This document shows, piece after piece, positions 44,428 through 55,789 of a stretch of DNA of 64,000 bases (its first letter is position 1; the number at the start of each line of letters is the position of its first letter). Source of the DNA: a virus; the IMG/VR virus record IMGVR_UViG_2693429897_000002; one strand, 5' to 3'. Made by a program: the position numbers and the translations under genes. The notes under the pieces were generated by a model. It was not told where the DNA came from and made no database searches. It saw nothing but the letters and a program-made list of their open reading frames with translations.

Positions 44428-45173
44428 TGGCGGCGCTTCTGGACTTCAACCATCGGGAGAAGAAACCCGATTTCGCGGATGCGGTGAACGCGCTCATCGA
44501 CGCCGCCCTGACAACCGAGAACGCGGGCCGACCTGCGCGTGACTATCTCGGGGGCAGCCGTCTGGGCGATGCCTGCCAGCGGCGGCTTCAATACGAATAT
44601 CTCAAGGCGCCGAAGGACGACGGTGCGGACTTTACCGGACGCTCCTTGCGTATCTTCGCGCTTGGTCATGTTCTCGAGGATCTGGCCATCGACTGGCTGC
44701 GCAAGGCCGGCTTCGATCTCAGCACGCGCAACCGCCATGGCGAACAGTTCGGCTTCTCCGCCGCTGGCGGCCGCCTGCAGGGGCATGCCGATGGCGTCAT
44801 CGTGGCGGCGCCGAACGGAATGGCGGTTCCGGCGCTTTGGGAGTGCAAGTCGGCCAATGCGAAGAACTGGCGCGAGATCGCCAGGCGCGGCGTGGTCAAG
44901 GCCAAGCCGATCTATGCGGCGCAGATCGCGCTCTATCAGGCCTATCTCGGCCTCACCGAGGCGCCGGCGCTCTTCACCGCGATCAACAAGGACAGCTGCG
45001 AGATCTGGCACGAGCTGGTCCCGTTCGATGCCGAGCGGGCGCAGGCCGCGAGCGACAAGGCGGTGCGGATCCTGCGCGCCTGCGACGCGGGCGAACTGTT
45101 GCCCCGGCACACGGAGGATCCCGAGCATTTCGAATGCCGCTTCTGCGCCTGGAAAGAGAGGTGCTGGGCATGA
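44427..45173 (+). CDS. PD-(D/E)xK exonuclease (Cas4-like phage nuclease)
   Basis: YLGGSRLGDACQRRLQY, GHADG, LWECKS, YAAQIALY and CRFCAWKERC. Confidence 0.85.
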   Translation: MAALLDFNHREKKPDFADAVNALIDAALTTENAGRPARDYLGGSRLGDACQRRLQYEYLKAPKDDGADFTGRSLRIFALGHVLEDLAIDWLRKAGFDLSTRNRHGEQFGFSAAGGRLQGHADGVIVAAPNGMAVPALWECKSANAKNWREIARRGVVKAKPIYAAQIALYQAYLGLTEAPALFTAINKDSCEIWHELVPFDAERAQAASDKAVRILRACDAGELLPRHTEDPEHFECRFCAWKERCWA

Positions 45174-47539
45174 CGGAAGTGCCACTGAACACCCCCGACA
45201 CGACACCCGTTCCCGATCGCGACATGATCGCGACCTACGTCCAGGCGGTGTTCGGCTATTGCGAGCATCTGGTGCCGGTGCGGGCGCTGGCCGAGAAGGG
45301 CGCGGCGGACGCGCCCCCGCACACGCCGTTCCTGCCCGCCGACGACACGCTCGCCGAGATGCTCGCGCGCCAGGCGGATTGGGCGGCGCGCGCCGGCATG
45401 GCGCTTTTCGTGGTGCCGGGCACGGTCGAGAAACCCGGCGATGCCCGCGCGGAGCACATTCTGCAGACGCAGGTCGTGCTGGTCGATCTCGACCATGGCG
45501 ACATCGCGGCGAAACGCGCCCATCTGGAATGCCATGTGGGACGGCCCACGCTGGTCGTCGCCTCGGGCGGTGTGACAACCGAGGGTCAGCGCAAGCTGCA
45601 TCTCTACTGGCGCCTGACCGAGCCGGCGGAAGGCGAGGACATCGCGCGCGTGTGCCGGCTGCGGCAGACGATTGCCGCGAAGGTCGGCGGCGATCCGGCT
45701 TTCAAATCCGCCCATCAGCCGATCCGGGTCGCGGGCAGCATCCATGCCAAGGGCGGCAGTCGGCGGCTCGTCGAGATCATCGATCACGCCGAGATCGATC
45801 ACGACCTTGGCGAACTCACCGAGTCCATCCTGGCGATGCCGCCGATGGAGGGGCTCTCGGATGACACGCTCGATTTCAACGGTGCAGGCCGCGGGGGCGA
45901 CTCGGTTCCGGAACTGTTCGGGCGCCCCGTTCGCGAAGGCGGCGTCGACGGCACGACCCGCTTCGATGCGCTCTCTCGCGTCATCGGCTACTGGATCCGT
46001 CGCTGCCGCGAAGGGCATGTCACACCGGGCGAGGCCTGGGACGAGATCAAGGCCTACAATCTCGCCCGCATCGATCCGCCCTGGCCGGAGGACAGGCTGA
46101 AACGGGAAGCCGAGCGTTTGTGGCAGCGAGATCTCGAACGCAACGGGGCCTTCGACGACGATCTTCCCGAAGGCGCCGATGGCGGCGGCGGAGACAATGA
46201 CGGCCCGACACCCGTGCGTTTCAGCGAGGACGCGCTGGCGGCGCGCTTTGCCGAGCGGCACGCCTATCGCTGGCGCTACGTGGCCGGATGGGGACAGTGG
46301 CTCACCTGGACCGGGGCGGTCTGGCGGCGCGAGGACACGCTGCAGGCCTTCGATCTTGCGCGCCAGGTCTGCCGCGAGGCGGCGGTGCGCGCGCCGTCTG
46401 CGCGTGTTCGCACCAAGCTGTCCACGGCCGCAACTGTGGCCGCCGTCGAGCGGCTCGCCCGCAGCGATCGCAGGCATGCCAGCACGACCGAGATCTGGGA
46501 CCGCGACCCCTGGCTTCTGAACACCGGCGATGGCGTGATCGACCTTCGCACCGGCGCGCTATCCGCCCACGATCCGCAGCTCTTCATGACCAAGGTCGCG
46601 GGGGCCTCCTGCAAGGGCGCCTGTCCGACATGGGAGGCGTTCCTTCATACAGTCACGGGCGGTGACGCAGAGCTTCAGGCCTATCTGCGCCGGATGGCCG
46701 GTTACTGCCTGACCGGCGTGACCACCGAGCATGCGCTCTTCTTCCTCTACGGCACCGGCGCCAACGGCAAGTCGGTCTTTGCCAACACGCTGACCGCGAT
46801 CATGGGCGACTACGCCACCGTCGCGGCCATGGACATGTTCATGGCCACCCATGGCGACAGGCATCCGACCGACATGGCGGGGCTCCGCGGCGCGCGGATC
46901 GTGACCTCCATCGAAACCGAACAGGGAAGCCGCTGGGCCGAGAGCAAGCTCAAGGCCCTCACCGGCGGCGACAAGATCACCGCCCGCTTCATGCGGCAGG
47001 ACTTCTTCGAGTTCATCCCGCAGTTCAAGCTGCTGATCGTCGGCAACCACAAGCCGTCCATCCGCAACGTGGACGAGGCAATGCGGCGACGGCTGCACAT
47101 GGTGCCCTTCACGGTCACCATCCCGCCCGCCAGACGCGACCGACGCCTGTCCGACCGGCTTCTGGCCGAGCGTGACGGCATCCTCGCTTGGGCGCTCCGG
47201 GGCTGCCTCGAGTGGCAGGAGACCGGACTGCGCCCGCCCGAGGCCGTGATGGCGGCGACCGAGGACTACTTCGAGGCCGAGGACGCGCTCGGGCGGTGGA
47301 TCGAAGAACGTTGCGTGACGGGCCCGTCCTACTGGAGCGGGTCAAGCGCGCTCTTTGCAAGCTGGAAAAGCTGGGCCGAGGCGAACGGAGAATACGCCGG
47401 TTCGATGAAGCGTTTCTCCGAAACCCTGACCAACCGCGGCTTCGAGAAACAGAACACCCGCAGCGCTCGGGGCTTTCGTGGACTGGCTCTGCGGGACAGC
47501 GATGATGACCTATTCGGGGGAGAAGAAAAATGTCAGTAA
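45170..47539 (+). CDS. Phage primase-helicase (RepB-like primase plus P4/D5 SF3 helicase), 789 aa
   Basis: VDLDHG, KLHLYW, HQPIRVAGSIH, GTGANGKS and VGNHKP; start MTEVPL at 45170. Confidence 0.92.
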   Translation: MTEVPLNTPDTTPVPDRDMIATYVQAVFGYCEHLVPVRALAEKGAADAPPHTPFLPADDTLAEMLARQADWAARAGMALFVVPGTVEKPGDARAEHILQTQVVLVDLDHGDIAAKRAHLECHVGRPTLVVASGGVTTEGQRKLHLYWRLTEPAEGEDIARVCRLRQTIAAKVGGDPAFKSAHQPIRVAGSIHAKGGSRRLVEIIDHAEIDHDLGELTESILAMPPMEGLSDDTLDFNGAGRGGDSVPELFGRPVREGGVDGTTRFDALSRVIGYWIRRCREGHVTPGEAWDEIKAYNLARIDPPWPEDRLKREAERLWQRDLERNGAFDDDLPEGADGGGGDNDGPTPVRFSEDALAARFAERHAYRWRYVAGWGQWLTWTGAVWRREDTLQAFDLARQVCREAAVRAPSARVRTKLSTAATVAAVERLARSDRRHASTTEIWDRDPWLLNTGDGVIDLRTGALSAHDPQLFMTKVAGASCKGACPTWEAFLHTVTGGDAELQAYLRRMAGYCLTGVTTEHALFFLYGTGANGKSVFANTLTAIMGDYATVAAMDMFMATHGDRHPTDMAGLRGARIVTSIETEQGSRWAESKLKALTGGDKITARFMRQDFFEFIPQFKLLIVGNHKPSIRNVDEAMRRRLHMVPFTVTIPPARRDRRLSDRLLAERDGILAWALRGCLEWQETGLRPPEAVMAATEDYFEAEDALGRWIEERCVTGPSYWSGSSALFASWKSWAEANGEYAGSMKRFSETLTNRGFEKQNTRSARGFRGLALRDSDDDLFGGEEKCQ

Positions 47540-48407: not shown

Positions 48408-48613
48408 AGGCGATGCGCTTCACCCCGCCGGGCTATGGCGGTCGGCGACGCGATCCCGATGAGGTCAAGCGCGACGGCTGGCGGGAACAGGGAATTTTAG
48501 CGGTGTCCGTCGACGACGACAGGCTGACCTGGCCCGAGCGGGAACTGGTGCGCCAGCTGGGCGAACGCCTCTACGGGCCGCGCCCCGCCGATGACGGAGA
48601 GCGTCATGGATAG
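48404..48613 (+). CDS. Hypothetical phage protein (69 aa)
   Basis: MKAMRFTPPGYGGRRRDPDEVKRDGW; ATGA-coupled. Confidence 0.65.
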   Translation: MKAMRFTPPGYGGRRRDPDEVKRDGWREQGILAVSVDDDRLTWPERELVRQLGERLYGPRPADDGERHG

Positions 48614-49046
48614 GTGGACCCCGTCCCTCGTCGAGGCCCGGCTTTCCGAGGCGGCATTCGTGCTCAAACGGCTCCCCGAGCCACGACTTCGGGGGTATTT
48701 CAGCACATGGCCCGAGATCATCCACTCCTTCGCCGACCAGGTGGGCCAGGAGCCGAAACGGATGCGCGTACTGCCCTCGCCGCAGGCGATCAGCCGGATG
48801 GAGGAGACGCTGACCTGGACTGCCGGTCTCGACCCGGTCGACGGAAAGATCGTCTGGCTTCGCGCTTACGGCTATCGCTGGCGCGAGGTCTGCCGCGCGG
48901 TCGGTCTTCAGCGTGCCTCTGCCCATCATCATTGGGTCTATTCCTTGTGTCTGATCGCGCACCGGCTGAACAACCGCCGCCTCAACCCGCGGCTTTCCAT
49001 GCAGCAGGTGATCGACCTCGCGCGCGCCGACGACCCGGCGCTGTGA
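48591..49046 (+). CDS. DUF6362-like putative late-gene regulator
   Basis: WTPSLVEARLSEAA...AISRMEETLTW...VWLRAYGYRWREVCRAVG HTH; last gene before the packaging region. Confidence 0.7.
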   Translation: MTESVMDRWTPSLVEARLSEAAFVLKRLPEPRLRGYFSTWPEIIHSFADQVGQEPKRMRVLPSPQAISRMEETLTWTAGLDPVDGKIVWLRAYGYRWREVCRAVGLQRASAHHHWVYSLCLIAHRLNNRRLNPRLSMQQVIDLARADDPAL

Positions 49047-49388
49047 GCGTTCCGAAGCCGGATGAATTTTTTTCCAGACACTTTCGCGATCATGCCGGTA
49101 TGTGAGGGGTAAGTTCAATCGGTGCGTCGGAAGGTCACCCAGCCAAGGCCACGGTTCCTTCCTGGCTGAATACGTATGCTGGCGGGCTTGGCGCGCAATA
49201 TCGCCAGCGACAGGGCCGGATTTTTGGGAAGCCACCCGGAATCCGGATCCATGAAAACCCCACGCAAACCCAATAAACACTGGCCTTCTGGCCGGATACC
49301 CCGGACGCCGCTGGACCCCGCGAGGAGTCCAGCGCGGCATCCGGAATCCACTCCGCCGGAATCCACCACCACTCACGGAACACCGCCC

Positions 49389-50738
49389 ATGACGCTGAGC
49401 TTCGCCCCCGAGCGGATCGAAACCTGGCCGCTGGCCAAGCTCCAGCCCTACGCGAAGAACGCGAAGGTGCATGGGGCCGACCAGGTGGCGAAGATCGCCG
49501 CCAGCATGGCCGAGTTCGGCTGGACCGTGCCCTGCCTCGTCGGCGATGACGGCGAGCTGATCGCCGGACACGGCCGCGTTCTGGCCGCAACGCAGCTCGG
49601 GCTGACCGAGGCACCGGTGATCGTGCTCGGGCACCTGACCGAGGCGCAGCGGCGGGCCTATCGTCTGGCCGACAACAAGCTGACGGAGCTTGCCGACTGG
49701 AACGAAGCCGTTCTTTCGGCAGAACTGAATGACCTGCTGGCCGAGGACTTTGACCTGTCGCCGGTCGGCTTCTCCGACGGCGAACTCGACAAGCTGCTGG
49801 CCTTCGTGCCGGAGGGGGACGGTGAAACAGAAGATGGCGCCGGCGGCTCCGTGCCGCCGGTGACCATCCCGGAGCCGCCGCGCAACCCGGTGTCGCGGAC
49901 GGGCGATCTGTGGATCCTTGGCGATCACCGGCTGCTCTGCGGCGACAGCACGAACCACGACGACGTGCGCCGTCTGATGAACGGCGAGCGCGCGGTGCTG
50001 TTCGCGACCGATCCGCCGTATCTCGTCGACTACGACGGGTCCAACCATCCGACCCGGAACAAGGACTGGTCCGCCTCCTATGGCACGACCTGGGATGACA
50101 GCTCGCAGGGCGCGGAGCTCTACGACGGCTTCATTGCCGCCGCCGTTGCGGAAGCGATCACCGAGGATGCCGCGTGGTATTGCTGGCACGCCTCCCGCCG
50201 CCAGGCGATGCTGGAAGCCTGCTGGGAGAAGGCGGGCGCCTTCGTGCATCAGCAGATCATCTGGGTGAAGGATCGCGGCGTCCTGACCCGGTCGCATTAT
50301 CTTTGGAAGCACGAGCCCTGCTTCATGGGCTGGCGCCGCCCGAACCGCCCGCCGAAGGTGGCAGAGGAAACGCTGCCCTCGACCTGGGAGATGCCGTCCT
50401 TCGCCAAGGACGAGCGGCCCGACCATCCGACGCCGAAACCGCTCGACGCCTTCGGGATCCCGATGCGCCAGCACGTCGCCCGTGGCGGGCTTTGCTACGA
50501 GCCGTTCTCCGGCTCGGGCTCGCAGATCATGGCGGGCGAAGCCAACGGTCGCCGCGTCTACGCCATGGAGATCAGCCCAGCCTACGTCGATGTCGCCGTG
50601 GAGCGCTGGCAGGCGGAGACTGGCAAGGACGCGATCCTCGATGACGACGGTCGAACTTTTTCGCAGGTGAGGGCCGAGCGGCTGAAAAACACACAAGGTG
50701 CAGATACCGCCCAATCCGAACAGAAGGCCGCAGCCTGA
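49389..50738 (+). CDS. ParB-like domain fused to an N6/N4 DNA methyltransferase
   Basis: LIAGHGRV, YRLADNKL, TDPPY, HPTPKP and YEPFSGSGS; start MTLSFAP at 49389. Confidence 0.92.
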   Translation: MTLSFAPERIETWPLAKLQPYAKNAKVHGADQVAKIAASMAEFGWTVPCLVGDDGELIAGHGRVLAATQLGLTEAPVIVLGHLTEAQRRAYRLADNKLTELADWNEAVLSAELNDLLAEDFDLSPVGFSDGELDKLLAFVPEGDGETEDGAGGSVPPVTIPEPPRNPVSRTGDLWILGDHRLLCGDSTNHDDVRRLMNGERAVLFATDPPYLVDYDGSNHPTRNKDWSASYGTTWDDSSQGAELYDGFIAAAVAEAITEDAAWYCWHASRRQAMLEACWEKAGAFVHQQIIWVKDRGVLTRSHYLWKHEPCFMGWRRPNRPPKVAEETLPSTWEMPSFAKDERPDHPTPKPLDAFGIPMRQHVARGGLCYEPFSGSGSQIMAGEANGRRVYAMEISPAYVDVAVERWQAETGKDAILDDDGRTFSQVRAERLKNTQGADTAQSEQKAAA

Positions 50739-50742
50739 GGCG

Positions 50743-51729
50743 ATGCATGACCTGGCTCTACCTTCCCCCGGCCTGTCTGCCGGAGCTGGAGACCTGTTCG
50801 GCCTCTCGCTCTGCTCCGGCGCAGGCGGGCTCGACCTCGGGCTCGCCATCGCCTTGCCCGAATATCGAACTGTGGGCCATGTCGAACGGGAAACCTACGC
50901 CGCGGCCATTCTCGTGGCCCGGATGGAAGAGGCGGCCTTGGATCCGGCGCCTGTCTGGGACGACGTTGCCAGCTTCGACGGCCGCCCTTGGCGCGGTGCG
51001 GTGGACATCGTCACTGCGGGCTATCCGTGTCAGCCATTCAGCGTGGCGGGCAAACGCCGGGGTGTCGACGACCCCCGCCACCTCTGGCCGCATGTCGCCC
51101 GCATCGTCGGCGAGGTCCAGCCGCCCTTCGTCTTCCTCGAGAACGTCGCCCATCATCTCCGCCTCGGCTTTCCCGAAGTCGCCGGAGGATTGGTCGACAT
51201 GGGCTACAGACTTGCGGCGGGCCTCTTCACGGCGGCGGAAGTCAGGGCGCCGCACAAGCGCGAGCGGCTCTTCATCCTCGCCATCCGCGAGGGAGACCAC
51301 CTGGCCGACCCCGCGCGCTTGCTCCGGGACCCGCTCGAGCGGTGGGAACCGGACGGAGATGCTCGCCCGTTGGCCGACGCCGATGGCGAGCGACGGCCAC
51401 AAGCCGAGCGCGGGCAAGCGGAAGCCGGCCGATCTGACGAATGCCAGCCGCATGTGGATGACGCCGACAGCGCGGGATCACAAGGACGGGGCGACGACAT
51501 TGGCGAACACGCCGGTGAACGGCCTGCTTGGCCGCCAGGTCCTGGTGACGCCGACGGCTGGCGGGAGTACCTGCGACACGCCCCGGACGCTGAACCCAGC
51601 GTTCGTCGAGGCGCTGATGGGCTGGCCCACCGGGTGGACCGGCTTCGCCTCTGCGGCAACGGAGTGGTCCCGCTGGTTGCCGCGCATGCGGTCAGAACTC
51701 TCGCGGCTCAACTGCTGGCCGATGGATGA
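50743..51729 (+). CDS. C5 cytosine DNA methyltransferase, alpha-type polypeptide (motifs I-VIII and X)
   Basis: SLCSGAGG (I), TAGYPCQPFS (IV), FLENV (VI), HKRERLFI (VIII) and RLCGNGVV (X); no motif IX in this frame. Confidence 0.9.
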   Translation: MHDLALPSPGLSAGAGDLFGLSLCSGAGGLDLGLAIALPEYRTVGHVERETYAAAILVARMEEAALDPAPVWDDVASFDGRPWRGAVDIVTAGYPCQPFSVAGKRRGVDDPRHLWPHVARIVGEVQPPFVFLENVAHHLRLGFPEVAGGLVDMGYRLAAGLFTAAEVRAPHKRERLFILAIREGDHLADPARLLRDPLERWEPDGDARPLADADGERRPQAERGQAEAGRSDECQPHVDDADSAGSQGRGDDIGEHAGERPAWPPGPGDADGWREYLRHAPDAEPSVRRGADGLAHRVDRLRLCGNGVVPLVAAHAVRTLAAQLLADG

Positions 51730-51742
51730 GAGTGAGGCATGA
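50747..51742 (+). CDS. Overlapping alternative-frame polypeptide carrying a TRD-like region and motif IX of the C5 methyltransferase
   Basis: Frame open for 331 codons; W[PM]TP repeats and RTLNPAFVEALMGWPTGW (motif IX-like); shares the GAGG RBS; its stop overlaps the next ATG (ATGA). Confidence 0.72.
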   Translation: MTWLYLPPACLPELETCSASRSAPAQAGSTSGSPSPCPNIELWAMSNGKPTPRPFSWPGWKRRPWIRRLSGTTLPASTAALGAVRWTSSLRAIRVSHSAWRANAGVSTTPATSGRMSPASSARSSRPSSSSRTSPIISASAFPKSPEDWSTWATDLRRASSRRRKSGRRTSASGSSSSPSARETTWPTPRACSGTRSSGGNRTEMLARWPTPMASDGHKPSAGKRKPADLTNASRMWMTPTARDHKDGATTLANTPVNGLLGRQVLVTPTAGGSTCDTPRTLNPAFVEALMGWPTGWTGFASAATEWSRWLPRMRSELSRLNCWPMDESEA

Positions 51743-51963
51743 AGCAGTCGCGGCTCATGTCGATGGTCGAGGCGGCCACGAACGTTGTTGTCGGCTACGT
51801 TCTGGCCATCGCCACGCAGATCGTCGTGTTCCCGTGGTTCGGGATCGAGACCGGTCTCGCGGAGCATCTGACCATCGGCCTCGCTTTCGTCGGCGTCTCG
51901 CTGGTGCGGTCCTTCGCCCTGCGCCGGCTGTTCGAGGCGCTGCGGATGCGCGGGACGAAATAG
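51739..51963 (+). CDS. Small hydrophobic phage protein (DUF7220-like)
   Basis: MKQSRLMSMVEAATNVVVGY...RSFALRRLFE. Confidence 0.75.
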   Translation: MKQSRLMSMVEAATNVVVGYVLAIATQIVVFPWFGIETGLAEHLTIGLAFVGVSLVRSFALRRLFEALRMRGTK

Positions 51964-52014: not shown

Positions 52015-52539
52015 TCAATCGCTGGCGATGCGATAGACCCGCCCGCGCCCCTCGACCTTCTCAGAGGTGATCGTCATGCCCAGCTTCTTCTTTAGGGCGC
52101 CGGACATGGCGCCTCTCACTGTGTGAGCCTGCCATCCGGTGGCTTCGACGATCTCGTCGATGGTTGCACCGACGTCGTCGCGAAGCATTTCAATCATCCG
52201 CGCCTGCTTCGTGCCGGTGCGCGGTTTGCGAGTCTTGGGCGCGGGCTTGGTGTCCGGTTGCTCCGGCTCGATGCCGATGGCCGCGAGGCCCGCATCGGTG
52301 ACGTGCAGGAGGATGGCACAACCATCCTCATCGTTGCGCCAGATGCGGTTCAGGGCGGGATCGGCCTTCGCGAGTTGATCCGTCACGGTTTCGGCGATCA
52401 GCCCGCGCTTCATGAGCGCGCCGATCACTTTCTGCGCGGCGCCTCCGCGCAAGCTGCCGGGGAGAGGCAGGACATTGCGATCGTCACGCTGCGCGGCGGC
52501 GCCGAGGATGATTGCTTGCGTGTCGGATAGCTTGGTCAT
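52015..52539 (-). CDS. DUF3489-family protein
   Basis: MTKLSDTQAIIL...GTKQARMIEML...GATIDEIVEATGWQAHTVRGAMSG. Confidence 0.82.
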   Translation of the reverse strand: MTKLSDTQAIILGAAAQRDDRNVLPLPGSLRGGAAQKVIGALMKRGLIAETVTDQLAKADPALNRIWRNDEDGCAILLHVTDAGLAAIGIEPEQPDTKPAPKTRKPRTGTKQARMIEMLRDDVGATIDEIVEATGWQAHTVRGAMSGALKKKLGMTITSEKVEGRGRVYRIASD

Positions 52540-52676
52540 CTGGGGTCTCCGTGTTCGGGGCCGCGACCGTCGCGACCCTCCTACGACCCGTTCGCCCGAC
52601 TTACGCGGCCCCACTGGGGCCACGGTTCGGGCTCACCGCGCAGGGCGCGCGGCGGGAGTTCCGGCTGCGCCGGAGA

Positions 52677-53250: not shown

Positions 53251-53811
53251 ATGGAGGGCTTGAGCGAGCGCCAATACGCCGCCCGTGTCGGCCTGTCACG
53301 CGGCGCGATCCAGAAGGCGAAAGCGACGGGGCGGCTGGTGCTGCACGAAGATGGCAGCATCGACGCGGAGGCCAGTGATGCCCTGCGCGCGCAGGCGACC
53401 GATCCTTCGAAAACCCGCAAAGCACCACAACCCAAGCTGAAGCCCGTTCCGGAAGCAGCGGTGTCCGCCGTCGGCGATACCCTGCGGGAACAGGGAATGG
53501 CCGCGCCACCGGTCGGCAGCGGCACCACCTTTCTGCAGGCCAAGACGGCGAACGAAGTGCTGAAGGCGCAGGAACGGCGCCTCCGGCTGCAGAAGCTGAA
53601 AGGCGAGTTGATCGACCGGGCCCGCGCATTGTCGCTGGTTTTCCGGCTGGCGCGGCAGGAGCGTGACGTCTGGGTCAACTGGCCCGCGCGGGCGGCGGCG
53701 TTGATGGCAGCCGATCTGGGCGTCGAGCCCGCCGTGATGCAAAAGGTCCTGGAGAAACATGTCCGAGCCCAGCTCGACGAGCTTGCCGAGATCAAACCCG
53801 ATCTCCGGTGA
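53251..53811 (+). CDS. Terminase small subunit (Nu1-like)
   Basis: N-terminal wHTH SERQYAARVGLSRGAIQKA plus coiled coil, immediately upstream of the GpA terminase. Confidence 0.75.
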   Translation: MEGLSERQYAARVGLSRGAIQKAKATGRLVLHEDGSIDAEASDALRAQATDPSKTRKAPQPKLKPVPEAAVSAVGDTLREQGMAAPPVGSGTTFLQAKTANEVLKAQERRLRLQKLKGELIDRARALSLVFRLARQERDVWVNWPARAAALMAADLGVEPAVMQKVLEKHVRAQLDELAEIKPDLR

Positions 53812-55789
53812 TGCGCACGCCTCAAGTAGCGAAGCGGTAGGCGAACAAATCGAAGACTTCGAGGGCGCGGCGGAAATCCTGCGCGCCTGGGGTGAAGGCC
53901 TGAAGCCGGATCCGGACCTGACCGTGTCGCAATGGGCGGATCGGCACCGGATGCTCTCGGGCCGGGCCTCGGCAGAACCCGGGCGGTATCGCACGGCCCG
54001 CACGCCCTACATGGGCGAGATCATGGACCGGCTAAGCCCGGGCGATCCAACGCAGCGGATCGTGTTCATGAAGGCGGCACAGGTCGGCGCGACCGAGGCC
54101 GGCAACAACTGGATCGGCTTCGTGATCCACCAGGCACCGGGCCCGATGCTGGCGGTCCAGCCGACGGTGGAACTGGCGAAACGCAACTCGCGCCAGCGGA
54201 TCGACCCGCTGATCGATGAAAGCCCGGAGCTGCGCGAACGGGTCAAACCGGCGCGCTCGCGGGATGCGGGCAACACGATGCTCTCCAAGGAATTCGCAGG
54301 CGGCATCCTGATCATGACCGGGGCCAACTCGGCGGTCGGGCTGCGTTCGACCCCGGCGCGCTACATCTTCCTCGACGAGGTCGATGCCTATCCAGCCTCG
54401 GCCGACGAGGAAGGCGACCCGGTCACGCTGGCCGAGGCGCGGTCGCTGACCTTTGCCCATCGGCGCAAGGTGTTCCTGGTCTCGACCCCGACGATCCGGG
54501 GGCTGAGCCGGATCGAGCGGGAATACGAGGCCAGCGACCAGCGCCGCTTCTTCGTGCCGTGCCCCCATTGCGGGCAGATGCAATGGCTGAAGTTCGAGCG
54601 GCTGCGCTGGCAGAAGGGTCGGCCGGAAACGGCGGAATACCATTGCGAGGGCTGCGAGGCGCCCATCGCGGAACACCACAAGACGGCGATGTTGCAAGCG
54701 GGCGAATGGCGCCCGACGTCCGAGGCGGCTGATCCGAACACCGTCGGCTATCACCTCTCGGCGCTCTATTCCCCCATCGGCTGGCTGAGCTGGGAGCGGA
54801 TCGTGCGGGCATGGGAAGCGGCGCAGGGGGCGGACGAGGCCATCAAGGCGTTCCGCAACACCATTCTTGGCGAGACATGGGTCGAGACCGGCGAGGCGCC
54901 CGATTGGCAGCGGCTTTACGACCGGCGTGAGCGATGGAGGCCGGGCATCGTTCCCGCGGGCGGGTTGTTCCTCACCGCCGGGGCCGACGTGCAGAAAGAC
55001 CGGATCGAGGTCGATGTCTGGGCCTGGGGCCGTGGTCTGGAAAGCTGGCTCGTCGATCACATTGTCATTGAGGGTGGACCCGACCGGCATGAGGCCTGGG
55101 GCGATCTGACAGACCTGCTCGGTCGAACATGGCGGCATGAGCGTGGCGCACATCTGAAGATCGCGCGGCTCGCCATCGATACCGGCTATGAGGCCCCGGC
55201 AGTCTATGGTTGGGCGCGGGCGCAAGGCTTTGCACAGGTGTCGCCCGTGAAGGGCGTCGAGGGGTTCAATCGGGCCAGTCCGGTCTCGGGCCCCACTTAC
55301 GTGGATGCGACCGAGGGCGGCAAGCGCCTGCGACGCGGCGCGCGGCTCTGGACCGTGGCGGTCTCAACCTTCAAGGCCGAGACCTACCGCTTCCTGCGGC
55401 TGGCGCGGCCGACGGAGGAGGATCTGGCCAAGGGGGCCGCGTTCCCGGCCGGCACGGTGCATCTGCCGGGTTGGGTCGAGAACGAATGGTTGAAGCAGTT
55501 CGTCGCCGAACAACTGGTGACGGTCGCTACCCGCCGCGGCTTTGCCCGGCTGGAATGGCAGAAGCTGCGCGAGCGGAACGAGGCGCTGGACTGCCGGGTG
55601 TATGCCCGGGCCGCCGCCTGGATCGCGGGTGCGGATCGCTGGACCGACGAGAAATGGCGCGACCTCGAGGATCAGCTCGGGGTGGCCGACGCTTCTGCGG
55701 ATCCCGCGGGGCAGATCAACAGGCAGGCGCAGGCATCGCAGGGGAAACGCCGATCCGACTGGCTCGGACGGCGTGGAGGATGGTTCTAA
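53759..55789 (+). CDS. Terminase large subunit, GpA family (true start may be slightly downstream)
   Basis: MKAAQVGATE, IFLDEVD, STPT, VPCPHCG, GADVQKDR and RNEALDC. Confidence 0.95.
   Translation: MSEPSSTSLPRSNPISGDAHASSSEAVGEQIEDFEGAAEILRAWGEGLKPDPDLTVSQWADRHRMLSGRASAEPGRYRTARTPYMGEIMDRLSPGDPTQRIVFMKAAQVGATEAGNNWIGFVIHQAPGPMLAVQPTVELAKRNSRQRIDPLIDESPELRERVKPARSRDAGNTMLSKEFAGGILIMTGANSAVGLRSTPARYIFLDEVDAYPASADEEGDPVTLAEARSLTFAHRRKVFLVSTPTIRGLSRIEREYEASDQRRFFVPCPHCGQMQWLKFERLRWQKGRPETAEYHCEGCEAPIAEHHKTAMLQAGEWRPTSEAADPNTVGYHLSALYSPIGWLSWERIVRAWEAAQGADEAIKAFRNTILGETWVETGEAPDWQRLYDRRERWRPGIVPAGGLFLTAGADVQKDRIEVDVWAWGRGLESWLVDHIVIEGGPDRHEAWGDLTDLLGRTWRHERGAHLKIARLAIDTGYEAPAVYGWARAQGFAQVSPVKGVEGFNRASPVSGPTYVDATEGGKRLRRGARLWTVAVSTFKAETYRFLRLARPTEEDLAKGAAFPAGTVHLPGWVENEWLKQFVAEQLVTVATRRGFARLEWQKLRERNEALDCRVYARAAAWIAGADRWTDEKWRDLEDQLGVADASADPAGQINRQAQASQGKRRSDWLGRRGGWF

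Follow-up and report, generated by a model that had tools for sequence, protein, structure and literature searches.

The stretch of DNA analyzed here (64,000 nucleotides of the virus record IMGVR_UViG_2693429897_000002, referred to as the window) carries, between the replication and packaging genes of a prophage and adjoining a second orphan methylase, a gene in which two open reading frames on the same strand overlap fully. Translation of the window places frame A at 50743..51729 (+ strand; 328 amino acids plus a stop codon at 51727-51729), where it comprises a catalytic core, a linker, and motif X, and frame B at 50747..51742 (+ strand; 331 amino acids plus a stop codon at 51740-51742), in the +1 frame relative to A from end to end. 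Both start codons are supplied by the sequence ATGCATGA, which contains the ATG of frame A at 50743 and that of frame B at 50747. A Shine-Dalgarno-like GAGG (50737..50740, + strand), recognized from its sequence only, is located 2 nt before the ATG of A and 6 nt before that of B, and it overlaps the TGA (50736-50738) of the upstream gene, which precedes the two ATGs by 4 and 8 nt, respectively. This upstream gene (49176..50738, + strand) encodes a ParB_N domain fused to an N6/N4 DNA methylase (PF01555, E 8.9e-10; weak match to PF02195) and is found beside this type of gene in further loci as well, L001 among them. On the other side, the stop codon of frame B overlaps the start of a DUF7220 gene (51739..51963, + strand; PF23858, E 1.7e-32) in an ATGA at 51739-51742, a junction present in most of the close family. 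The paired ATGs behind GAGG, the 331 open codons of frame B, and the sharing of its stop with the next gene had all been put forward in a preliminary description of the locus, and each was confirmed in the sequence. Long shadow reading frames are common in high-GC DNA, an example being an antisense frame of 794 codons at 48465-50849. X15, one of the RNA contigs of a metatranscriptome, maps to the gene with 90-95% similarity; it does not prove that this prophage is transcribed and is silent on the use of the frames.

Residues 21-187 of frame A matched the PF00145 profile (E 7.6e-31) over positions 4-167 of 324, which correspond to motifs I-VIII. Motif I (FGLSLCSGAGGLDLG, 50797-50841), motif IV (GYPCQPFS, 51019-51042), motif VI (FLENV, 51133-51147), and motif VIII (HKRERLFILA, 51253-51282), all on the + strand, form invariant columns in both alignments A1 and A4. 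The PCQ of motif IV contains the catalytic cysteine, and motif I is the F.G.G loop that binds AdoMet. Frame A therefore possesses what defines the core of a C5 DNA methyltransferase, namely LCSGAGGLDLG, GYPCQPFS, FLENV, KRERLFILA, and a Rossmann-like fold. Its motif region aligned to residues 73-176 of M.HhaI (E 2e-22), and hhalign matched its N-terminal part to columns 7-173 of an alignment of 29 canonical C5 methyltransferases (P 3.4e-36), again motifs I-VIII. In the AF2 model of frame A (pTM 0.71), the core is folded, residues 197-259 are disordered, and the C-terminal helix is confidently predicted; a Foldseek search with this model retrieved M.HhaI and M.HaeIII (both at E 1e-11) as well as DNMT1.

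The middle of frame A (residues 186-255; 51298..51507, + strand) is an acidic, Gly/Arg-rich linker (LADADGERR...) with a pLDDT of about 30 and without a match to the canonical enzymes in hhalign; its residues are not conserved, yet its reading frame is kept open. The target-recognition domain and motif IX, which belong between motifs VIII and X, are absent from frame A as judged by profile, conservation, and model, the 186-255 segment being unconserved and disordered. The C-terminus (residues 256-328; 51508..51726, + strand) reads WPPGPGD..W...ADGLAHRVDRLRLCGNGVVPLVAAHA, with P265, P267, W273, G293, G305-V308, and P310 invariant, and the stretch GNGVVPLVAAHA is invariant in 37 divergent sequences. 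It includes motif X (51655-51690, + strand; GNGVVP at residues 305-310), the GN..V.P helix that closes the AdoMet pocket. The assignment is supported by the alignment of GNGVVP to canonical columns 310-332 (hhalign, P 0.022), and the helix at residues 309-327 has a pLDDT of 91 in the AF2 model. The earlier proposal that frame A has motifs I, IV, VI, VIII, and X and no motif IX is thus borne out by the end of the PF00145 match at position 167 of 324 and by hhalign.

In frame B, the first half (residues 1-185; 50747..51301, + strand) is Ser/Trp/Arg-rich and overprinted on the catalytic domain of A. It has a pLDDT mostly below 50 (AF2) and no profile match, and it is probably a translated leader; together with the middle of frame A, it looks like passenger sequence rather than functional protein. 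There follows a repeat region (51302..51583, + strand) with WPTP at residues 186 (51302-51313) and 209 (51371-51382), then WMTPTARDHKDG (51455-51490), which brings WMTP at residue 237, and finally TPVNGLLGRQ. Little or no variation is seen at residues W209, T211, W237, T239, P240, and D244, and the region, sitting where such a domain belongs, is a putative target-recognition part. Beyond the repeats, the translation reads R.LNP.FVEALMGWPTGWT, which includes a motif IX-like element, RTLNPAFVEALMGWPTGWT (residues 280-298; 51584..51640, + strand), on the same DNA that encodes PSVRRGADGLAHRVDR in frame A. The best local hhalign match of the frame B C-terminus was to motif IX (columns 279-308); it was weak (P 0.002-0.007, probability 6-13%), with P values of 0.46 and 0.96 in the controls. 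Thus, of what had been proposed for frame B, the WPTP repeats are present as described, and so is the motif IX-like sequence, while its assignment to motif IX remains weakly supported. HMMER searches of Pfam, NCBIfam, and PDB with frame B gave no methyltransferase match. The PDB search brought up only MS2 coat protein (E 0.007) and, far weaker, an aminoglycoside nucleotidyltransferase (E 2.6), both of which were discarded as chance matches. In a protein-atlas look-up, the nearest entries to the C-terminal half of B were viral 'C-5 methylase domain' clusters, with values of 0.84-0.85 that are below the counting level and serve as a lead only. Modeled alone with AF2, frame B was mostly disordered (pTM 0.20), with order only around residues 280-325.

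Taken together, the hhalign matches tile the canonical enzyme in its proper order, from the N-terminal part of A (columns 7-173) through the C-terminal part of B (279-308) to the C-terminal part of A (310-332), so that the motif IX columns of B directly precede the GNGVVP columns of A. The middle of A and the first half of B match nothing.

The +1 position of B relative to A was found in 163 of 163 related loci, and both frames were full-length in all but four of them. The C-terminal half of B (residues 186-331) matches 4748 clusters at 50% identity, and full-length relatives of B include phage contigs with a GC content of 45%. Since hundreds of phage and prophage genomes, low-GC ones included, share the two-frame layout, we regard it as selected and not accidental. 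Relatives in cultured phages come from Synechococcus (PCC 7002), Klebsiella, and Komagataeibacter, and related two-frame genes reach 1.5 kb. In every locus inspected, the frame B family was overprinted on such a methylase gene. The paired starts are conserved in all lineages, from 70% down to 45% GC, as either NTGNATGR or NTGTGGAT, the latter being a form in which the start of B and the GTG of A have one base in common; near them lies a Shine-Dalgarno sequence (e.g., AAGGAGG in L002) or the stop codon of an upstream gene. The shared start site is nevertheless not universal, because frame B starts about 35 codons inside frame A in a subclass of Klebsiella phages. Insertions and deletions comprise whole WPTP units that leave both frames intact, the length of A varying with the number of repeats, and in one metagenome variant a -1/+1 indel pair is separated by only 5 nt.

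In a few lineages, the passenger parts are broken. The middle of frame A contains 5-15 stops in three loci (L169, L172, and L173), all of which retain the C-terminus of A (WPPGP..GNGVVP), and one stop in L238, while the first half of frame B has one stop in L180 and a stop at codon 5 in L150. A covalent A or a full-length B is therefore not strictly required everywhere, although these contigs may be decaying copies or assembly errors. No natural fused form with the repeats of B was found: only 4 of 57 long representative matches have PF00145, and those examined were A-to-B chimeras with a different junction in each case.

The window by itself is only suggestive, since at its GC content of 69% synonymous-codon permutation gave P = 0.17 for B being open given A and P = 0.002 for A being open given B. 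At lower GC content, the permutations left less room for chance: in loci of 45-60% GC, none of 2000 permutations in either direction kept the other frame open in most cases, the per-locus P otherwise being at most 0.0095. In divergent viral contigs of 45-65% GC, frame A has its terminal stop only, compared with 8-35 stops in the third frame, and in phage contigs of 45-50% GC, frame B runs through without a stop, against an expectation of 5-9. A region-wise test on 22 divergent loci found no stop in the first half of B (about 60 expected in total; 22/22 loci open) and none in the middle of A (about 95 expected), the latter being open also in low-GC relatives in which 2-11 stops are expected. 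The avoidance of stops in frame B among homologs, named beforehand as a check on the dual-frame proposal, thus holds, and at the family level the dual open frames are far beyond chance. A sequencing or assembly error was considered and rejected, as independent metagenome contigs are identical letter for letter and hundreds of homologous loci have the same layout.

Selection on the two frames was compared in 137 non-redundant loci. In the middle region, the same DNA gave an amino acid difference of 0.456 for A and 0.22 for B. In the 3' region, the four-fold sites of the two frames diverge by only 0.13 and 0.10, versus 0.38-0.40 in the flanking genes, and in the 5' region those of A diverge by 0.205, versus 0.40 in the neighboring genes. 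Judged from these substitution patterns, both frames are constrained in the 3' overlap, and in the middle it is B that is conserved. The same dual constraint is visible in single codons of the motif IX-like element, where B is restricted at its synonymous sites to the bases that give D, R, and V in A. Of 28 lineages, 27 have a Leu codon with a final G and 23 have GGG for Gly within the LMGWP.GWT of B, even where the GC content is 45%, a codon choice by which the D and V of A are kept.

Three other explanations have to be weighed. Frame A might be the only gene, with frame B arising merely from high GC content together with the conservation of A. The P value of 0.17 obtained for B in the window, the frequency of long shadow frames in high-GC DNA, and the annotation of A alone in most database records are compatible with this idea, which is nonetheless already contradicted by the comparative data and which we find scarcely credible: frame B stays open in phage contigs of 45-50% GC in spite of the 5-9 stops expected, it is twice as conserved as A in the middle region, the indels track its repeat units, its start is conserved beside that of A, and its stop is coupled to the next gene. 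Alternatively, both frames could be translated and B could act independently, for instance as a DNA-binding or anti-defense factor, with A working alone or with a host factor. The lack of a significant HMMER match of B to any methyltransferase, the weakness of its motif IX match, and its largely disordered prediction when modeled alone, as is often the case for overprinted proteins, leave room for such a function. Known C5 methyltransferases, however, need both a target-recognition domain and motif IX, and A has neither, while the conserved part of B fills exactly that gap, the best profile match of B is motif IX at the right position, and the B family was seen overprinted on such a methylase gene wherever a locus was inspected. 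We therefore consider an independent B unlikely.

It is also conceivable that the gene yields one mosaic chain by two frameshifts, in which ribosomes would leave A after motif VIII by a +1 shift, read the repeats and motif IX in B, and return by a -1 shift for motif X, with an enzyme of the canonical one-chain kind as the outcome. The canonical tiling of the functional pieces (N-terminal A, middle and C-terminal B, C-terminal A) would fit such a product, and so would the three loci that keep the C-terminus of A behind a stop-filled middle. On this assumption, however, the middle of A and the first half of B would be needlessly open, and yet they are open at 45-60% GC; the pairing of start codons in every lineage also speaks against it. 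Sites of +1 shifting usually depend on a stop or hungry codon in the zero frame. In the window, no slippery heptamer or homopolymer was present at the required junctions, and the bypassed segments are open in nearly all lineages, so that what would be expected of programmed frameshifting is not met; the A-to-B chimeras in the databases, too, differ in their junction each time. Finally, LMGWP.GWT of B and ADGLAHRVDR of A lie on the same nucleotides and are both selected, and no single chain can hold both. A mosaic chain thus appears quite improbable to us.

The reading that we prefer, and hold to be somewhat better than an even bet, is that the two overlapping frames encode two polypeptides of one C5 DNA methyltransferase, although translation of both, binding of A to B, and the requirement for B are inferred. 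It builds, at the level of sequence comparison, on the conservation of both frames and of their paired starts, on selection patterns specific to each region, and on the complementarity of the parts of A and B. Ribosomes would reach a single site, formed by the stop codon of the upstream methylase and GAGG, and start at either ATG 50743 (A) or ATG 50747 (B). Chain A would then consist of an AdoMet-binding catalytic domain (motifs I-VIII), a disordered linker, and a motif X helix predicted to pack back on the catalytic domain, and chain B of about 185 passenger residues, the W-P-T-P repeats as a putative target-recognition region, the motif IX-like LNP.FVE.LMGWP.GWT, and a helix. Lacking a target-recognition domain and motif IX, A is expected to depend on B for DNA binding and methylation. 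The likely role of such an enzyme would be self-protection of the phage DNA from host restriction. The split-enzyme reading of the preliminary description stands insofar as both frames and starts are conserved and the 3' overlap is under dual constraint, and has to be amended in that B holds the repeat (putative target-recognition) region as well and not motif IX alone.

Extended to the relatives, the data are, in our opinion, reasonably though not firmly in favor of a very large phage and prophage family of obligate two-chain C5 methyltransferases, encoded in fully overlapping frames of one gene of 1-1.5 kb, usually with paired starts. In such a family, each chain would be functional where the other is a passenger, and both would be functional in roughly the final 50 codons. 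The arrangement may plausibly go back to a one-chain ancestor whose frame changed twice, such changes being tolerated in GC-rich DNA, in which alternative frames are often open.

In database records one finds either frame A, under the name 'DNA cytosine methyltransferase' and with an unusual low-complexity middle, or frame B, listed as a 'hypothetical protein', but never the two together; most have A, in line with the expectation that standard annotation would miss frame B. Should both chains prove to be produced and required, half of the enzyme is missing from the annotation of a common class of orphan phage methyltransferases, and cloning or modeling from the annotated frame alone could mislead. 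For work on overlapping genes, the locus would also provide a deeply conserved natural example in which about 1 kb is read in two frames of the same strand, with a function open to testing and a clear division between functional and passenger segments, and in which a conserved pair of starts 2-4 nt apart apparently uses one ribosome landing site. Judged against the overlapping genes known to us and the papers retrieved, it would be among the overlapping gene pairs of prokaryotic viruses with the greatest length and the widest conservation. The relatives in Synechococcus PCC 7002 and Klebsiella phages make the two-chain idea directly testable.

A literature search yielded no paper on the two-frame arrangement, only the precedents of M.EcoHK31I and M.AquI and general papers on overlapping genes. 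Most long bacterial overlaps reported are antisense, young, and of unknown function (PMC8227390, PMC8850804). The present gene resembles long overprinted genes of this kind in that one DNA encodes two proteins, each pair having one segment of odd composition that is predicted to be disordered, and differs from them in being same-strand, in covering the gene completely (about 1 kb here and as much as 1.5 kb in relatives), in its paired starts, and in that both products apparently belong to one enzyme. With canonical PF00145 enzymes (M.HhaI, M.HaeIII, and the second enzyme of the same genome, on contig C62), frame A shares the fold of residues 16-190 and motifs I, IV, VI, and VIII, with GNGVVP as motif X. 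In these enzymes, however, motifs VIII and X enclose, in one and the same frame, the target-recognition domain and motif IX (e.g., L246:874-2262), whereas frame A is unconserved and disordered in the corresponding stretch, and it is the +1 frame that contains the matching sequence. M.AquI is a natural two-polypeptide C5 methyltransferase that is split in the variable region (PMC3404938), which indicates that the fold tolerates division there; in contrast to M.AquI, motif X stays here with the catalytic chain, and the frames overlap completely. The closest precedent is M.EcoHK31I (Lee, Kam and Shaw 1995), which is described as a C5 methyltransferase of two chains, both required, whose beta chain carries motif IX and is encoded in an alternative frame inside the alpha gene (PMC2836561, PMC3404938), while alpha keeps the target-recognition domain (PMC2836561). 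As in M.EcoHK31I, the second chain is encoded in another frame within the gene of the first (163/163 loci). The beta chain of M.EcoHK31I is small, nested, and limited to motif IX, whereas frame B has 331 codons against 328 in A, starts 4 nt from the start of A, and carries putative target-recognition repeats in addition to the motif IX-like element; A has no recognizable target-recognition domain, and each chain has a long passenger segment. Moreover, M.EcoHK31I is part of a restriction-modification system, whereas the gene in the window encodes an orphan prophage enzyme. By analogy, the gene is best read as a much larger version of the M.EcoHK31I arrangement.

The two-frame gene lies within a prophage, whose surrounding genes include those for a lambda-type portal, a capsid protein, and a tail tube protein. 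Frame A, which carries the catalytic domain of a C5 DNA methyltransferase, runs from an ATG at 50743 to a TGA at 51729 (328 amino acids; P0001), and frame B from an ATG at 50747 to a TGA at 51742 (331 amino acids; P0002). The sequence around the starts reads ...TGAGGCGATGCATGA..., in which the TGA of TGAGG is the stop codon of the methylase gene directly upstream (49176-50738), 4 nt before the start of frame A; at the other end, the TGA of frame B overlaps the ATG of a DUF7220 gene (51739-51963). The preliminary description had claimed two overlapping frames with a motif IX-like part in frame B, and all its statements on the sequence of the two frames proved correct, so that the two-frame observation is confirmed. 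A D5_N primase-helicase gene (44837-47539) is located near a DUF6362 gene, while a DUF3489 gene (52015-52623, minus strand) stands between the methylases and the gene for the large terminase GpA (53759-55789). The upstream product is a ParB_N-like domain fused to an N6/N4 (DPPY-type) DNA methylase, and these two orphan methylases stand side by side again in distant phage contigs (L001 and L180). The DUF7220 product is a small membrane-like protein translationally coupled to frame B. An antisense ORF of 794 codons (48465-50849, minus strand) covers the ParB-methylase gene, extends over the beginning of the two-frame gene, and is most likely a high-GC shadow ORF. A variant contig from metagenome run X2 lacks one base at 51562 and has a T inserted behind 51567, a compensated pair that disturbs both frames over two codons only.

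The match of frame A to PF00145 (E value 7.6e-31) was confined to positions 4-167 of the 324 in the profile, and frame B had no match in Pfam or NCBIfam. The AF2 model of A (pTM 0.71) contained a confident catalytic domain (residues 16-195), a disordered stretch (197-259), and helices at the C-terminus, motif X among them; a Foldseek search with it retrieved M.HhaI, M.HaeIII, and DNMT1 over about 174 columns. B modeled alone was mostly of low confidence (pTM 0.20), with order only around residues 280-325. Both frames were then compared with a profile of 29 canonical C5 methyltransferases, each a single chain, taken from genomes of the same class; the unpublished genome G040 was excluded, and none of the claims depends on it. 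The N-terminal part of A matched columns 7-173 (P 3.4e-36), the C-terminal part of B (R.LNP.FVEWLMGWP.GWT) columns 279-308, i.e., motif IX (P 0.002-0.007), and the C-terminal part of A (GNGVVP) columns 310-332, i.e., motif X (P 0.022). No columns were matched by the middle of A (residues 186-255; P 0.81) or by two controls, the first half of B (P 0.96) and its reversed C-terminal part (P 0.46). The conserved parts of the two frames tile a canonical enzyme in order, with the repeat region of B at the place of the target-recognition domain. The matches to motifs IX and X are short and individually weak, and their credibility derives from position and order in the alignment. The other C5 methyltransferase of the same genome (contig C62; L246:874-2262, minus strand) has motifs IV, VI, VIII, IX, and X within one frame (TPCQAFS, ENVPG, QRRERVF, RRLTPHECHRLQGFADDH, and GNSMAVPV, respectively); it adjoins a 390-amino-acid ORF that may be part of another mobile element.

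Each of the two frames has a large set of database relatives. Frame A has hundreds of full-length annotated homologs (328-393 amino acids) with near-invariant N- and C-terminal parts and a variable, low-complexity middle showing indels of 30, 37, or 63 residues. The C-terminal half of frame B also has many relatives: residues 186-331 matched 4748 clusters (50% identity), including 633 with E < 1e-10. These include full-length proteins of 330-450 amino acids without a Pfam domain, some clearly from low-GC organisms. PF00145 was present in only four of 57 long B-type representatives, and those inspected were A-to-B chimeras with a different junction each time. Cultured phages show the same layout with one frame annotated in each: frame A in Synechococcus phage Yong-M2-251 (OM868082.1) and Klebsiella phage YMC16/01/N133_KPN_BP (gp10; NC_052975.1, 8381-9451; L280), and only a fragment of B, with the methylase frame unannotated, in Komagataeibacter phage phiKX1 (L244). 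The latter two represent another subclass of C5 methylases in phages, with YYNEWD.. at the N-terminus, ..CRDGK..YGNAI at the C-terminus, and a +1 frame that likewise bears WPTP repeats and L(N/D)P.HSRWLMGFP.

In every lineage of the window's subfamily, the start codons of A and B are adjacent, in one of two forms: (i) NTGNATGR, in which B starts four nucleotides after A (ATGCATGA in the window), or (ii) NTGTGGAT, with B first and its last base shared by the GTG of A. Since a good Shine-Dalgarno sequence (AAGGAGG in L002) or the preceding gene's stop codon lies upstream, the paired starts appear to use a shared ribosome landing or re-initiation site. They are not universal, because in the Klebsiella-phage subclass B starts about 35 codons inside A. 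In the close family, the stop of B is usually part of an ATGA junction with the following gene, and that of A lies 13 nt before it.

GC-rich DNA often contains long ORFs in alternative frames, and the GC content of the two-frame region is 65-70%, so frame B might be no more than a GC artefact. Synonymous-codon permutation of the window's own gene gave P = 0.17 for B being open given A and P = 0.002 for A being open given B; the window by itself is therefore only suggestive, and the question is settled by comparative data. In two distant B-type loci, the phage contig L001 (45% GC) and L002 (59% GC), the frame at offset -1 stays open throughout and codes for motifs I, IV, VI, and VIII, then a junk-like middle and ..GNGVVP.., while the third frame is packed with stops. 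B was the +1 frame of A in 163 of 163 loci from genomes and viral contigs, and both frames were full-length in all but four (A is short in L019 and L035, B in L109 and L150). Across a divergent viral panel (44-70% GC), nearly all loci had no stop in A other than the one that ends it, against 8-35 stops in the third frame, and a locus of 34% identity (L243) showed the same pattern. Permutation of low-GC loci gave 0/2000 in most, in both directions. Stop avoidance in frame B of homologs, a check proposed in the preliminary description, was borne out: no stop occurred in the first half of B (residues 1-185) in 22 of 22 divergent loci, against about 60 expected in total, and none in the middle of A, against about 95. 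Both frames being open in low-GC relatives contradicts a GC artefact.

Selection was assessed in a codon-by-codon alignment of 137 non-redundant loci to the window, with the neutral level taken from four-fold degenerate sites of the flanking genes (difference 0.40 upstream, 0.375 downstream). In the 5' region, amino-acid difference was 0.10 for A and 0.24 for B, which marks A as the conserved frame; its four-fold sites (0.205) lie at half the neutral level, so B adds constraint, at least stop avoidance. In the middle, the values were 0.456 for A and 0.22 for B; here B is the selected frame and A is merely kept open. In the 3' region, four-fold sites differed by only 0.134 (A) and 0.098 (B), indicating constraint on both frames. 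Within LMGWP.GWT of B, 27 of 28 lineages have a Leu codon ending in G, 23 have GGG for Gly, and 24 have C or A as the last base of the Thr/Ile codon, even at 45% GC; these choices yield D, V, and R in ADGLAHRVDR of A, and the sole exception at the Leu codon is L172, a locus with a broken A middle. Selection therefore acts on both frames over shared nucleotides, a pattern for which no single mosaic protein can account.

A two-chain enzyme is the reading with the best support, although translation of both chains and their binding are inferred. A would supply the catalytic core, a linker, and motif X, and B a leader, the putative recognition repeats, and motif IX; both would be translated from the paired starts, which possibly set the chain ratio. 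The A linker and B leader would be passenger sequence, kept open so that translation reaches the functional part. A double programmed frameshift making one mosaic chain is disfavored, since the bypassed segments stay open, the start codons are paired, the window junctions lack slippery sites, and the dual selection just described would remain unaccounted for. That B is an unrelated protein overprinted on the methylase gene is not excluded, but this would leave unexplained both the missing recognition domain and motif IX of A and the fit of B's conserved part into that gap. The two-chain enzyme could plausibly have arisen from an ancestral one-chain gene through a change of frame downstream of motif VIII and another between motifs IX and X, the other frame often being open by chance in GC-rich DNA, as the permutation value for B suggests.

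The exceptions show that the passenger parts are those that break. Four viral contigs have stops in the A middle (5-15 in L172, L173, and L169; one in L238) and retain the N-terminal domain of A, its C-terminal WPPGP..GNGVVP segment, and an intact B; in L172, the near-invariant D of ADG(L/M)A is also replaced by Y. They are either decaying copies or make the C-terminal piece of A separately. A single stop in the B leader occurs at codon 124 in L180 (1501-2875) and at codon 5 in L150 (2501-2512), with the repeats and LNP..GW intact in both, which suggests that B can do without the leader or can be initiated internally. One further locus, L195, has a stop within the catalytic domain of A. Broken-frame loci may be decaying copies, metagenome assembly errors, or internal-start variants.

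This layout is very common and conserved among very divergent relatives; annotation misses it, and it is easy to test. Full-text literature searches, whose coverage is incomplete, found no description of this two-frame family. The closest precedent is M.EcoHK31I, whose alpha chain contains motifs I-VIII, the recognition domain, and motif X, and whose beta chain, encoded in another frame inside the alpha gene, contains motif IX, both chains being needed (PMC2836561, PMC3404938). The preliminary description had proposed a split enzyme of this type, and the comparative data support its main line, with the putative recognition region placed on B as well. M.AquI is a natural split of a different kind. 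On the two-chain reading, the window's gene follows the same principle as M.EcoHK31I but differs in its complete overlap, its paired starts, the putative recognition region on the second chain, and a long passenger segment on each chain, and it encodes an orphan phage enzyme rather than half of a restriction-modification pair.
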